Source of the DNA: Candidatus Saccharimonadota bacterium
Lineage (GTDB): Bacteria; Pseudomonadota; Gammaproteobacteria; Johnevansiales; Johnevansiaceae
Assembly: GCF_000300075.1 (NCBI RefSeq)
Contig: NC_018677.1
Coordinates: forward strand, 120,001 to 152,000
Length of the DNA stretch: 32,000 nt
Direction of reading: 5' to 3'
Under the pieces are notes generated by a model. It was not told the DNA's origin. It did no database searches and saw nothing but the letters and a program-made list of their open reading frames with translations. Every line of letters starts with the position of its first letter. The stretch's first letter is position 1. Of this stretch, positions 1 to 9,359 are shown one piece after another. The position numbers were made by a program, and so were the translations under genes.

Positions 1-740
<740 letters not shown>

Positions 741-783
741 AAAAAAAGTCTTTATGAATAAAGAAGTACTTAAAACAAGTAGT

Positions 784-3776: not shown

Positions 3777-3896
3777 AGCTTGACGAATATAGTTTGTGGG
3801 ACCAACCTGAAACCATTCCGAACTCAGAAGTTAAATCACCTAACGCCTATGGTAGTATGAGGTTCTCCTCATGTGAGAGTAGGTTATCGTCAGGCT
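3777..3896 (+). rRNA. rrf: 5S rRNA
   Basis: 120 nt that align by eye to E. coli 5S: ccgaactcagaagt.aaa, gatggtagt-like ctatggtagta, and catgtgagagtagg. Terminal helix gcttgacg/cgtcaggc. Confidence 0.9.
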
Positions 3897-4160
3897 AGTA
3901 ATTGTTAAGTACTTATGTTTGTATAATCATAATTTATATGTTTAATACTTATATACGTTTTTTATACGAAGATCTAAAAAATAAATACTAATTGCTTGTT
4001 TTATATTATATTTTTTTATAGTTATGTTTTTTTAGATTAGTTATGTGTTATTATTTTTCTGTTGTATAAAGTATTTAAATAATTGGTTTCATTTTTAATA
4101 AATTGTATCGTTAAAATTAATTTTATAGTTAATAAGATGTAGTTTTGTAGATGAAGTAGA

Positions 4161-4258
4161 GGAAAAAGCAAAAAGCAGAAAAAAGAAAGCAGGGGTAAGT
4201 GTGGAAAAAGCAGAAAAAAGAAAGCAGGGGTAAGTGTGGAAAAAGCAGAAAAAAGAGG
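4161..4258. repeat. 35-bp purine-rich tandem repeat, ~2.7 copies
   Basis: The unit gcagaaaaaagaaagcaggggtaagtgtggaaaaa is identical at 4175-4209 and 4210-4244. A partial third copy starts at 4245 and a partial copy precedes 4175. Confidence 0.9.
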
Positions 4259-5420
4259 AAGTTAGAAAAAAAAGAGGTGGAAAAGAAATATGTATTGTGG
4301 AGTGTGTTATGTAGTTAGAGTATGTGATTTGTGAAAAAAAATATATAATTTTATACTTATAAAATGTGTTTGTGATGTATATGTATAGTACTTGATATGT
4401 ATTATATTTACGGGTTTACGTTAAGTAGGTATGTACTGTATGTTATGATTTTTAACTTAATTATATGTTAATACATTGGTTATGTTTTCTTTATTAAAAG
4501 CTTTAATTAAATTTATTGTTGTATTATGTATTCTTAATTTATTTTTTAAAACTTTAAAGATTATTTTTTGTTGTATAAACTACATAAGATGATGTTTTAA
4601 CTTTTAACTTGTAATTTGTTTATTATTAGTAAGAGTTCGTTGTACAATAAGAAAAAAAAAATTCTCTTAACTTCTTAAGTTGGGTTAGTTGATTTTTTAT
4701 AACTCTTTATCTGTTGTTTGTTTTTAAAAACATTAAGATTGGGTGGTTTGATTTTGGATAGTTTATAAGTTGTTATCTGTTAGTTTATTTAGTATTTTGT
4801 TTTTAACTTCTTAAAATTCGTATTTGTCATATATTTATTTATATATAAACCATCCTCTTTTGTATTCTTAAGTTCATTTACCATAATAGTTGTATTCTTA
4901 AATGGAAGTTAGATAAGTAGATGTTGTTGGTATTGTTAGTTAGATGGGATTTGTTTAGTTAGTAGCATAATTGAAGAAAGAGTTGTATAAGAAAAATAGT
5001 TAAATGGTTAGAGAAGTTGATGTTAGTGTTTGTTGGTAAATTGGTTAGTAGAGGTTGGTAATTAGATGTTAGATGTTAGAGAAAAGTTGGTAGTTGGAAG
5101 CTTGTAATATTTATTAATTGGTAGATGTTTGAATGTTGGTTAGTTGATAGCATATGTTATTTAAACGTTAGTTTTGTGTACAGTTTAAAAATGTTATATG
5201 CAGTTTAAAAGTTAGTAGTAATAGGTGTTATTGTTGTAAAAATAAGAAAAAGTTATTTATTTTTGAAAACAAATTAGTTAGGATCAATAAGATGTTATGC
5301 TACATAATTATAAGTTTGTATTTAATAGACGATTATTGTTAGTTTGGTTTAAATTCGCTTTGTTTGTTAAAAGTGGTAATGTTGTTTATTTAAGATTTTG
5401 CTGTTATAGGTTATGTATAC

Positions 5421-5530
5421 GATGTTTGATGTTTGATGTTTGATGTTAGCTGTTAGCTGTTAGCTGTTAGCTGTTTACTGTTAGCTGTTTGCTGTTAGGC
5501 TTGGTGGTAGGTGGTAGGTGGTAGGTGGTT
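5421..5530. repeat. Contiguous period-7 arrays: (GATGTTT)x4, (GCTGTTA)x7 with variants, (GGTGGTA)x4
   Basis: Counted directly: GATGTTT units start at 5421, 5428, 5435 and 5442; GCTGTTA-type units run from 5449 to 5497; GGTGGTA units run from 5503 to 5530. Confidence 0.92.
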
Positions 5531-5576
5531 TATGGTTAGATGTTGATTGTTGATGTTTGTTCGATGTTTGTTAAAT

Positions 5577-5627
5577 GGTTAGAGGTTAGAGGTTAGAGTT
5601 GTTAGTTGTTAGGTGTTAGGTGTTAGG
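5577..5627. repeat. Period-7 arrays (GGTTAGA)x3 and (GGTGTTA)x2.3
   Basis: GGTTAGA at 5577, 5584 and 5591; GGTGTTA at 5612 and 5619, plus a partial unit. Confidence 0.88.
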
Positions 5628-5754
5628 ATTGTTTATTTGTTATTGTTTGTTAGATCTTTGTGGTAAAAAAAAGATGTTATATGGTTATTTAGAAAGTAGA
5701 GTAAAGATGTTGGTTGTTTAGAAAGTAGGTTGATTTGTAGATTTTATCTGTTAG

Positions 5755-5785
5755 TTGTTAGTTAGTAGAGGTTAAAGGTTGCTTT
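5755..5785 (+). repeat. Left copy of a perfect 31-bp inverted repeat (partner 7142-7172)
   Basis: ttgttagttagtagaggttaaaggttgcttt is the exact reverse complement of aaagcaacctttaacctctactaactaacaa at 7142-7172. The flanks (about 5742-5800 versus 7127-7195) continue to match imperfectly. Confidence 0.9.
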
Positions 5786-5803
5786 AAAGATTAAAGCTTT
5801 TAG

Positions 5804-5831
5804 AGTTTGTAGTTTGTAGTTTGTAGTTTGT
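5804..5831. repeat. (AGTTTGT)x4 heptamer array
   Basis: Units at 5804, 5811, 5818 and 5825. Confidence 0.9.
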
Positions 5832-6837
5832 TTTTGCTTTATTTATTTGAGTTTGTATTCTTGTTAATTATATTTGTATAAGGTTGTATTTATAGGTCGT
5901 ATAGTTGTATATTGTAGGTTTGTTGTTAGATGGTAGAGGATTATTAATTAGATGTTAGAGTTTTGTTTTTTATCTGTTAGAGGTTTGTTTTATGTTGTTT
6001 AAATGGTTGCTTTAAAAAAAGGTTTGGTAGTTGTAATTCTTAATACTACAAAACATTATATAAACAAATAGCAATTAATACGGTTTATAATAATAAAGTG
6101 TAATAGTATATAGTTATTACAAATGTAATTGATTCAACAGTTCTTTAACCAAAACAAAAAAAAACATAAATAACGCCACTTTTACATTTCAAAATAACAT
6201 TAAGCAACTAACATATTCCTAACACAACTATGTTTAATGTTCTCACTAACCTAACAACTTTTCCAACAAACATACCACAAATATAACATATTTTATCCTC
6301 TTTAAAGCAACAACTTTTTAACAAATATCAAACAACATCTAACAACTATTTCTATATTTTACTTACAACAACCTACATCTAATAAATAAATTTATATTTT
6401 ATATACAACACTAATTAGAGTTACTAATATACAACAAATAAAAAAGAAATACATAAAATTAGAAATTACATACAAAAAAAAAGTTAGTAGAATATATACA
6501 ACAATAAAAAATCAAAACAATAAACAAAAAGAACAGATAAGAAATAAAGATCTAACAAAAAAGAAAATACAAAAAGAATTAAAAAACTCTAACTTAACTC
6601 AAAAATCCAAACGGCAAAGAAAAAAGAGAATATCAAACCATCAAACTCTTAAAAAACAACCTCAAAACATCAAATAAATAAACCTCTAACAGACTTAAAT
6701 ACAAACTCTTACCTCTAACATCAAAACATATAAAATATAATAAGTAAACTCTAAAAAACAACAACTAACAGATAAAAAAAAACATCTTTAATCTTTAAAG
6801 CAACTTCTTTTAAATCTAATAAACAATAAAAGCAACA

Positions 6838-6899
6838 ATCAAACATCAAACATCAAACCTAACAACTCAAACCTCAAACCTAACAACTCAAACCTCAAA
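6838..6899. repeat. (ATCAAAC)x3 followed by a 21-nt (3x7) unit x2
   Basis: ATCAAAC at 6838, 6845 and 6852. cctaacaactcaaacctcaaa at 6858-6878 and 6879-6899. ATCAAAC is the reverse complement of the GATGTTT-array motif at 5421. Confidence 0.9.
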
Positions 6900-7016
6900 A
6901 GTCTTAAAAGCAAAAACAAACAAAAATCTAAAAAAACAACAAATTTAACAACAAACCTCTAATAATAAATAATACAAGCAAACATTTAAACAATTAAAAC
7001 TCTAACATCAAAACAA

Positions 7017-7107
7017 GCTAACCGCTAACCGCTAACCGCTAAACAACAAACAACAAACAACAAACAACTAACAACTAACAACTAACCGCTAACCGCTAAC
7101 CGCTAAG
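7017..7107. repeat. 13 consecutive in-register heptads with a drifting motif: GCTAACCx3, GCTAAAC, AACAAACx3, AACTAACx3, CGCTAACx3
   Basis: Read unit by unit from 7017. The register is never broken over 91 nt while the unit sequence changes stepwise. Confidence 0.9.
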
Positions 7108-7141
7108 CTCTAATAGATAAAACATCACCTCTTAAATCTTA

Positions 7142-7172
7142 AAAGCAACCTTTAACCTCTACTAACTAACAA
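7142..7172 (-). repeat. Right copy of the perfect 31-bp inverted repeat (partner 5755-5785)
   Basis: See the partner feature. The two copies are separated by 1356 bp. Confidence 0.9.
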
Positions 7173-7368
7173 ATAAGCTCTAATAGATAAAACATAATAA
7201 CAAATAAAAACCATAACAACTAAAAAGAAAGAACGAGTAATATAACAGAAACAGCTTTAAATAGACAAAAACAACAAAGAAATAAAAAAAAAGCAACAAA
7301 AACTAAAAGAAAAAATAACAGAATACGGCTAAAAACATAACAGCAAAGAAAAGAAAAACCATAATAAC

Positions 7369-7424
7369 TAAACAGTAAACAGCAAACAGCAAACAGCAAA
7401 CAGCTAACAGCTAACAGCTAACAG
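7369..7424. repeat. (TAAACAG)x2 (CAAACAG)x3 (CTAACAG)x3 heptamer array
   Basis: Units start at 7369 and continue in register to 7424. CTAACAG is the reverse complement of CTGTTAG, which is the GCTGTTA array at 5449-5497. Confidence 0.9.
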
Positions 7425-7925
7425 CTTAACACATAAAAACAAAAACAAAAAAAAGAACAGCTTAAAAAAAAAAAAGAAAAAAAAATAAGAATAAATTGTT
7501 TAAATCTTTTATCAGAAAAAGTACAAAATGTAGAGTTTAAGATATAACAGCAGTAAAAAAAAGAAAATGGTTAACAAGTATATATAAAAAAACAAAAAGT
7601 CAAAAAAAAACAGCAGTAAAAATTAAGAAGAGTAGAAAAGGATATAGTATAGTGAAAAGAAAACTGGAAGATATACAGAAGTGAAGTACAAAAAGAACAA
7701 TAAACTTGGTAAAAACATGTATTAGCAATGAACGTTGAAAAATGAAAAAATTAAAGGCATTAAGCATAAATCGTTATATAAAAAATATAGTGATAATGGA
7801 AAAACATAGCTTAGAAAAATTATAAGCAACGGGATAAAATACAAGAAGCTGAATAATGATAAAATTCGATAAAAAAAAAGCAACAGTATAGCCACAAATA
7901 GATTGTGAAGGAAATTAAGAAGATT

Positions 7926-9359
7926 ATGAAAAAAATACGCACACGTATTGCACCTTCACCTACAGGTACACCGCATATAGGTACAGCATATATTTCTTTA
8001 TTAAATTATTATTTTGCTCGTATAAACAATGGAAAAGTAATTCTAAGAATAGAAGATACAGATAGTAAAAGATCAAAAAGTAAGTTTGAAAACAAAATTT
8101 TAGAGTTATTACATTGGTTAGGGATTCAATGGCATGAAGGGCCAGATATCGGAGGAAAGTTCGGACCTTATCGACAAAGCGAACGGAACAATCTTTATAA
8201 TAAATATGTTGAGAAATTAATAAAAGTAGGTAAAGTATTTAAATGCTATCGTACAAGTGAAGAACTAGAAAAATTGCGTAAATGTAAAGTTGATAAAACA
8301 TTAAAAGAAAAAGATTTACAGTTAGATTATAAGGAATTAAAATTTCGTAAAAAACACAATTGGCCTTATGTAATAAGACTAAAGGTTCCTAATAAAGGAA
8401 AATGCGTATTTTATGATGTATTAAGGGGTAGTATAACAATGAATTGGGATCAGATTGATTCACAAGTCTTAATAAAATCTGACGGAACACCTACTTATCA
8501 TTTAGCTAATGTAGTAGACGATTATTTAATGGGGATTACTAACGTAATAAGGGGTGAAGAATGGATAACTTCAACTCCAAAACATAAGTTGCTTTATGAT
8601 TATTTTGGTTGGAAACAGCCAGAATTTTGTCACTTACCATTATTACGTAATCCAGATAAATCAAAATTATCTAAGAGAAAACAAAATAATTCTATTGAAT
8701 TTTATCGAAAAATGGGTTATTTACCCCAAACAATAATAAACTACTTAGGTAGTTTAGGTGGTGTAAAAACGACTAAATGGTATAGAAAAAATACAAATAT
8801 GAAAACTAAAGTTGATATAAAGAGTATATCATTAGGAGGTCCAATATTTGATTTAGACAAATTATCTTGGTTGAATGGAATTTATATACGGTCAATGAAA
8901 AATGAAACGTTAATTCAGGTTATGTATGAATGGGCTAAAGACTATATACATAAGATTTTACCAACAATTAAACCTCGTATAAAAATTTTAACGGATATTA
9001 TTCATTTATCAGAACAAGTGTTTTATGGATTACCTAAATTAAAAAAGGAAGATTTTAAAGTTATTGCTTTGAAAAAAAAATTACAAATAAAAGTACTAAA
9101 ACATTTATGGTTACAATTAGAATATATAGAAAAATGGGACAAACAAAATATATTATATAAGGTAAAACAAGTATCTAACCAGTTACAAATGAAAATGAAA
9201 ACAATAATAGCTCCAATTTTTATTGCGATAAATGGAAGATTAATTTCTACATCGGTTATTAACACTATAGTAATTCTTGGTAAAGATATAACTCGTATAC
9301 GCATAAAGCAGGCAATAAAATTAATAGGAGGTATAACACTAAAACATGAAAACAAATAA
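7926..9359 (+). CDS. gltX: glutamyl-tRNA synthetase
   Basis: MKKIRTRIAPSPTGTPHIGTAY matches the GluRS N-terminus and HIGH region (E. coli MKIKTRFAPSPTGYLHVG). A KLSKRK (KMSKS-type) motif is present. The ORF track starts at GTG 7905, but ATG 7926 aligns with GluRS N-termini. Confidence 0.93.
   Translation: MKKIRTRIAPSPTGTPHIGTAYISLLNYYFARINNGKVILRIEDTDSKRSKSKFENKILELLHWLGIQWHEGPDIGGKFGPYRQSERNNLYNKYVEKLIKVGKVFKCYRTSEELEKLRKCKVDKTLKEKDLQLDYKELKFRKKHNWPYVIRLKVPNKGKCVFYDVLRGSITMNWDQIDSQVLIKSDGTPTYHLANVVDDYLMGITNVIRGEEWITSTPKHKLLYDYFGWKQPEFCHLPLLRNPDKSKLSKRKQNNSIEFYRKMGYLPQTIINYLGSLGGVKTTKWYRKNTNMKTKVDIKSISLGGPIFDLDKLSWLNGIYIRSMKNETLIQVMYEWAKDYIHKILPTIKPRIKILTDIIHLSEQVFYGLPKLKKEDFKVIALKKKLQIKVLKHLWLQLEYIEKWDKQNILYKVKQVSNQLQMKMKTIIAPIFIAINGRLISTSVINTIVILGKDITRIRIKQAIKLIGGITLKHENK

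Follow-up and report, generated by a model that had tools for sequence, protein, structure and literature searches.

The locus examined here is the spacer between the 5S rRNA gene, which ends at position 3895, and gltX, which starts at position 7926, of the 32,000-nt stretch of DNA analysed as a whole (the window; positions are those of the window unless given as genome positions). The nearest named relatives of its gltX are those of Candidatus Portiera aleyrodidarum, followed by those of Halomonadaceae, and the source genome, a single contig of 351,658 bp with 26% GC, is that of Candidatus Portiera aleyrodidarum, the whitefly symbiont, from the Bemisia tabaci complex. [quoted passage not shown] The spacer is 4030 nt long (3896-7925), has no credible ORF and lies in the place of a DEAD-box helicase gene that has been lost. 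Three other Portiera species with compact genomes have the ancestral order 5S rRNA-DEAD-box helicase-gltX (loci including L044:2933-4210 and L045:2904-4208), with a helicase of 425-434 aa lying in the same orientation between the two genes, whilst the helicase is absent from the B. tabaci Portiera genome (best tblastn E = 4.2). A weak relic of the helicase C-terminus lies close to gltX at 7806-7847 on the plus strand (tblastn, 57% over 14 aa, E = 0.16), placed relative to gltX as is a clear C-terminal relic in the sister lineage L014 (L014:8977-9045; 70% over 23 aa, E = 5e-7), and this weak match was the sole one, with no significant helicase match in the centre of the spacer. The helicase slot in relatives, the missing gene here and the relic near gltX together suggest that the 4-kb spacer is filler that replaced the lost gene.

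This filler has undergone complete turnover since the split from the sister Bemisia-type lineage L014 (ENA ERZ27294174), whose gltX protein is 89% identical to that of the window, as the orthologous 2.6-kb spacer (L014:6530-9133) has no detectable sequence in common with the window spacer. Its block order is also reversed, with an A+C-rich block beside the 5S rRNA gene followed by a purine-rich pseudogene remnant. Searches of other Portiera species for a homologous spacer returned just weak low-complexity matches, Rfam models found nothing in the spacer (matches in the window being limited to rRNAs and tRNAs) and six short spacer ORFs had no Pfam match. Across the genome, 53 spacers reach 600 nt or more, and in nearly all of these one strand has almost no C or almost no G. 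A switch from G-rich to C-rich occurs inside five spacers and the reverse switch in only one or two, and no rule tying polarity to the direction of the flanking genes or to chromosome position was found among these 53.

Variation of the 5S-gltX spacer between strains is almost entirely in the copy number of 7-bp units. Two mirrored heptamer arrays lie towards its outer parts, one of TGTTAGC units at 5444-5498 (plus strand) and its partner of AACAGCT units at 7370-7431 (minus strand), matching over 53 nt at 92%. The right-hand array is expanded only in the lineage of the window and CP016304 and is exact over 39 nt with arrays at genome positions 331567 (direct) and 337783 (inverted), a match that may possibly reflect ectopic templated transfer between distant spacers and not local slippage. 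At 4170-4256 the window also has a perfect 35-bp tandem repeat of 2.5 copies, of which CP016304 apparently has three more units; apart from this, the two genomes are distinguished in the spacer by nothing more than 7-bp steps, the lengths of two homopolymers and a single substitution.

Within this spacer, the 31-nt sequence TTGTTAGTTAGTAGAGGTTAAAGGTTGCTTT at 5755-5785 on the plus strand has its exact reverse complement at 7142-7172 on the minus strand, with no mismatches, and neither the window nor the rest of the 351,658-bp genome contains a third occurrence. The interval between the arms (5786-7141) measures 1356 nt and contains no gene. Extending the pair without gaps gives 5751-5796 and 7131-7176 (46 nt, 93%), and if one 7-nt gap is allowed the homology runs outward to a common TTTTATCT[G/A]TTAG, so that it exceeds the perfect 31 nt both inward and outward. 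The reference junctions read left flank-arm-AAAGATTAAAGC and, on the minus strand, TAGAGCTTAT-arm-TAAGATTTAAGAGG. The original prediction of a perfect 31-bp inverted repeat with imperfectly matching flanks was therefore accurate in its match, its distance and its extension. It was also right that the segment spans a switch in polarity: the left arm lies in a G+T-rich (C-poor) block, the right arm in an A+C-rich (G-poor) block, and the GC skew changes sign between them at about 6040-6150.

The arms belong to a dispersed spacer module of about 45-75 nt, of which they are the closest pair, and are not a unique sequence duplicated once. An nhmmer search at E<0.01 identified 17 copies, with both arms as the top two matches: the left copy at 5752-5822 on the plus strand (60.7 bits), which contains the 29-nt core GAGGTTWAAGGTTGCTTTWAAGATTWAAG with no mismatches, and the right copy at 7103-7175 on the minus strand (50.3 bits). 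The latter lies within a 76-nt direct-repeat unit, and in clade B loci (see below) the motif flanking it occurs twice, 76 nt apart. The core occurs seven times with at most 3 mismatches in the genome of the window and not at all in four other Portiera species, so that, with the genomes of five Portiera species searched, the module was seen in that of the window alone; a reversed control core likewise gave no occurrence. Every copy is oriented with the local strand skew. Within the 29-nt core, the left arm and the copy at genome position 319349 differ at one position and the two arms at two, whilst the 5' part TTGTTAGTTAGTA is common to the two arms only, and such mosaic similarity would be more in line with the transfer of patches than with one recent, clean duplication. 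The left arm ends, at 5778-5799, in GCTTTAA-AGA-TTAAAGC and TTTT, which make up a small hairpin and a run of T (z = -3.1, minus strand); this element is kept neither in the right arm nor in most other copies of the module.

The locus was compared with seven further complete assemblies of B. tabaci Portiera (CP016304, CM014390, CP003867, CP007563, one 357,472-bp record, CP016327 and CP016343) and with partial Logan contigs. A gltX-sucB/lpdA gene tree resolved two clades with moderate split support (83-85%): clade A, consisting of the window, CP016304, CM014390, CP003867, CP007563 and the 357,472-bp record, and clade B, consisting of CP016343, CP016327 with the Logan contig L034, and the contigs L035/L036. 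The eight assemblies, the window included, thus span both clades of the complex, and the arms are held at orthologous places in all of them, as a perfect 31-nt pair in all six clade A assemblies and as an imperfect pair in clade B. Since 31 nt are expected to be identical by chance over the divergence of the complex, the identity within clade A is by itself no proof of conversion.

Evidence that the arms exchange sequence comes from clade B, in which GAGG in the right arm is followed by an insertion of 5-6 nt that comes in three variants (that of L035/L036, that of CP016327 with L034, and that of CP016343). In CP016327, the left arm, read from a single GenBank assembly, has at the homologous site the same 6-nt GTGTTT as its own right arm, so that GAGGTGTTTGTT is present in both arms of this genome, whilst in the other strains it is confined to the right arm or missing altogether. 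The insertion is no tandem copy of neighbouring bases, and it lengthens the perfect inverted match of CP016327 from 17 to 25 nt. With non-array indels rare in the spacer and the insertion not tandem, an independent identical insertion is very unlikely (roughly <1e-5, a rough estimate), and the simplest reading of the shared GTGTTT is that the left arm received it from the right by templated transfer, through gene conversion or a template switch. The right-arm variant of CP016327 is backed by the independent contig L034. For the clade B left arm, independent contigs were sought via spurious spacer ORFs, of which one lookup returned another clade A genome and the other returned none. The start position of L034 was also considered as a sign of a fully converted left arm in that sample, a reading we dropped as it over-reads the behaviour of the assembly graph. 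CP016343, from the same accession range as CP016327, has a 16S segment only 91% identical to that of the window (compared with window 1-741) alongside protein genes 99.2% identical, and its heptamer arrays match those of the window (5415-5660) against the gene tree, which suggests either assembly or reference-guided artefacts in repeats and rRNA or striking homoplasy.

There is no sign, from the sequence features searched, that the repeat has a function of its own. The arms carry more changes than the adjacent non-array spacer, and the non-array parts of the interval are 96-100% invariant across six assemblies with the exception of one 84% bin. Promoter-like sites are fewer than in shuffled sequence (14 against 24.9 expected), no terminator was found at the arms (the single terminator-like match being a heptamer array) and the folding z-scores of the arm regions are unremarkable apart from the 7-bp left-arm hairpin.

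Taken together, we consider it likely that the repeat consists of two opposed copies of a dispersed module lying in filler that replaced the helicase gene, with occasional templated transfer between them, no function of their own and no fixed inversion, as part of an instability of the type already published for this symbiont. The rrn-gltX spacer has one copy in its G+T-rich block and one in its A+C-rich block, and occasional short-tract templated transfer would keep the arms similar or re-make their similarity. Such transfer would most likely proceed by RecA-independent template switching during replication or repair, a preference that follows from the gene content, as models for RecA, resolvase (PF00239) and phage/tyrosine integrase (PF00589) had no match in the whole genome whilst the controls were positive in 12-14 of 14 genomes. 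This mechanism is drawn from the missing recombination genes and from the literature on E. coli and organelles (PMC7202029, PMC4417113). A broader form of the argument, which we hold only tentatively and think has a minor chance of being correct, starts from a genome without RecA, RuvC, SSB and the proofreading subunit: inverted repeats of 31-46 nt lying 1.4 kb apart would be template-switching substrates, leading both to homogenised arms and to low-frequency inversion (U-turn) isomers in each insect, and genome-wide a shared pool of strand-pure modules would give rise to spacers built of abutting blocks of opposite polarity.

The original prediction had proposed that the repeat is a substrate for recombination or template switching and that the 1.36 kb between the arms could invert. 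The first part is borne out in so far as the arms exchange sequence, as the insertion shared in CP016327 indicates, whilst flipping of the interval 5786-7141 was not seen. The interval has one orientation in a fully collinear spacer in 8/8 complete assemblies (assemblies reporting the majority form only), the orthologous spacers of the seven further assemblies, to which the prediction had looked for the opposite orientation, included none that was inverted, and Logan contigs entering the interval from the right are collinear as well. A start at precisely 7142/7143, which a k=31 assembly graph is expected to produce where it branches at a 31-nt repeat, is seen in nine Logan contigs from further samples. 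As judged from these assembled sequences, there is no fixed inversion between the arms across the eight assemblies.

An ongoing flip-flop inversion driven by the arms, with both orientations coexisting within insects, would be compatible with their exchange of sequence, and would resemble both the repeat isomers of organelles and the alternative structures known at direct repeats of 349 bp and 172 bp in Portiera itself; alternative structures have been found within single insects at these longer repeats, with read-pair conflicts correlated with repeat-rich spacers (PMC3673631). Composition cannot exclude it, since an inversion of this interval would preserve the G-then-C skew pattern. However, the interval has the same orientation in every complete assembly (that of the majority form), the genome is without RecA or an invertase, and the repeat is only 31-46 nt long, where even the 172-bp prfA/prfB repeat yielded just 6.4% recombinant read pairs (PMC3673631), and we therefore regard ongoing inversion as unlikely.

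The opposed blocks raise the question of whether the whole spacer is a decayed large palindrome, produced by one inverted duplication through a fold-back or U-turn replication error, with the 31-mer as its best-preserved piece. Three inverted matches do nest in order (5444-5496 with 7378-7431, 5751-5796 with 7131-7176, and 5948-6013 with 6653-6718), and the excess of G-rich to C-rich switches over the reverse, five spacers against one or two, is in keeping with such an origin. However, further inverted matches violate the nesting order, and the outer right array is a recent expansion of one sublineage. When the left half was compared with the reverse complement of its own right half, the best anti-diagonal band held 34 k-mer hits, of which 21 stem from the 31-mer itself, and nine control C-rich spacers gave 3-29 hits in their best bands, so that the left half matches other C-rich spacers nearly equally well. 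Several pieces of the left half match better elsewhere, as does 5966-6007, which is identical over 42 nt to genome position 253369. The earlier suggestion that the repeat may itself have created or flipped the opposed blocks accordingly gains no evidence from this comparison, the match to the own half being only marginally above that to other C-rich spacers (34 against 29). A single inverted duplication seems to us quite improbable, and two abutting blocks that share one repeat vocabulary in opposite polarity would be the safer description of what the sequence contains.

A separate observation concerns genome positions 240171-243908, outside the window. The spacer there also turns from G-rich to C-rich, and its three inverted pairs, none of microsatellite type, are nested and have coordinate sums that scarcely vary. 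When its two halves are compared, the k-mer excess is larger than that of the 5S-gltX spacer but remains modest (62 hits against 6-37 in controls).

An origin by chance from low-complexity microsatellite sequence with a strand bias has in its favour that the genome contains 254 inverted pairs which match exactly over 20 nt or more (the longest 57 nt). The majority of them are heptamer arrays, and this abundance does make the pair at 5755/7142 less surprising. Against it, the 31-mer is non-periodic (maximum periodicity 0.5), 100 dinucleotide shuffles gave 0 matches to it, and both arms are conserved at orthologous places in the eight assemblies, which makes chance a highly improbable explanation. 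In a set of 37 inverted pairs that measure 22 nt or more and are not of microsatellite type, no other pair with arms at most 3 kb apart is as long as this one. The repeat is real and non-random, yet an ordinary product of a genome known to be unstable. Scarcely credible, finally, is a decayed insertion sequence or MITE with the arms as its terminal inverted repeats, or a pair of site-specific invertase sites, for although inverted ends of 31-46 nt around 1.4 kb are similar in form, the interval has no ORF of more than 43 aa and no Pfam match, resolvase and integrase are absent genome-wide, no direct target duplication flanks the ends (5742-5750 TTTTATCTG against 7177-7185 GCTCTAATA), the homology passes beyond the perfect part both outward and inward, and it is the arm module alone, and not the interior as a unit, that recurs elsewhere in the genome. 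With neither a transposase, nor a duplicated target, nor a further copy of the unit as a whole, a mobile element was accordingly ruled out.

The instability in which we place the repeat has been described in two studies (Sloan and Moran 2013, PMC3673631; Santos-Garcia et al. 2020, PMC7821994), which report that the Portiera of B. tabaci has bloated intergenic regions with a spike of 7-bp tandem repeats, and that gene conversion keeps its repeats identical even though nearly all genes for replication, recombination and repair have been lost. Indels between strains were found to be mainly 7-bp steps (PMC3673631). In word searches of the two texts, 'inverted' and 'skew' were absent from the former (PMC3673631), and in the latter 'skew' is absent and 'inverted repeat' appears once, in a genome-wide repeat count (PMC7821994). 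What the present locus brings to this picture is that sequence appears to be exchanged between very short inverted repeats outside genes despite the lost recombination genes, and that this exchange seems to have occurred without a resulting fixed inversion across the species complex, as represented by the eight assemblies. The spacer can also be dated, having replaced a lost helicase gene and having undergone complete turnover since the split from the sister lineage.

Four known systems offer comparisons. Invertible switches of the Hin, Gin and Fim type also have short inverted repeats around a segment of about 1 kb, but unlike them the interval here has no recombinase gene to act on it, no internal promoter or coding signal and one orientation in all strains, and so lacks the features of a site-specific invertible segment. 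Organelle genomes undergo microhomology-mediated U-turn inversions and have repeat-mediated isomers (PMC4417113), and the likeness lies in a small genome poor in repair, where replication can be misprimed at short inverted homologies in the absence of RecA; the organelle events, however, were seen as rearranged reads spanning <50 bp to a few kb, whereas the assemblies and contigs compared here contained no rearranged form. In lacZ reporters of E. coli, template switching at quasipalindromes copies a mutation of one arm from the other and makes the repeat more perfect (PMC7202029), which is what the CP016327 insertion does in bringing its arms nearer to perfection, from 17 to 25 nt. Classical quasipalindromes, however, are hairpin-sized with short loops, whereas the arms here lie 1356 nt apart, beyond hairpin pairing, so that a switch would require a template at some distance or a passage across the replication fork.

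The closest likeness is to the gene-conversion repeats of Portiera itself (PMC3673631; PMC7821994), with which the pair shares the organism, intergenic regions rich in 7-bp repeats, indels in 7-bp steps, copies identical within a genome and present across strains (the 31-nt pair in the six clade A assemblies and at the ends of nine Logan contigs) and a concerted change in both copies (the GTGTTT of CP016327, with its left arm from one assembly). The published recombining repeats of Portiera are direct, 349 bp and 172 bp long, with one pair genic (PMC3673631), whereas the pair here is inverted, 31-46 nt long, purely intergenic and has no isomer in the assemblies. The repeat is a new instance of the phenomenon described by Sloan and Moran (2013), which leaves the published picture unchanged and provides a defined site for the template-switch idea.
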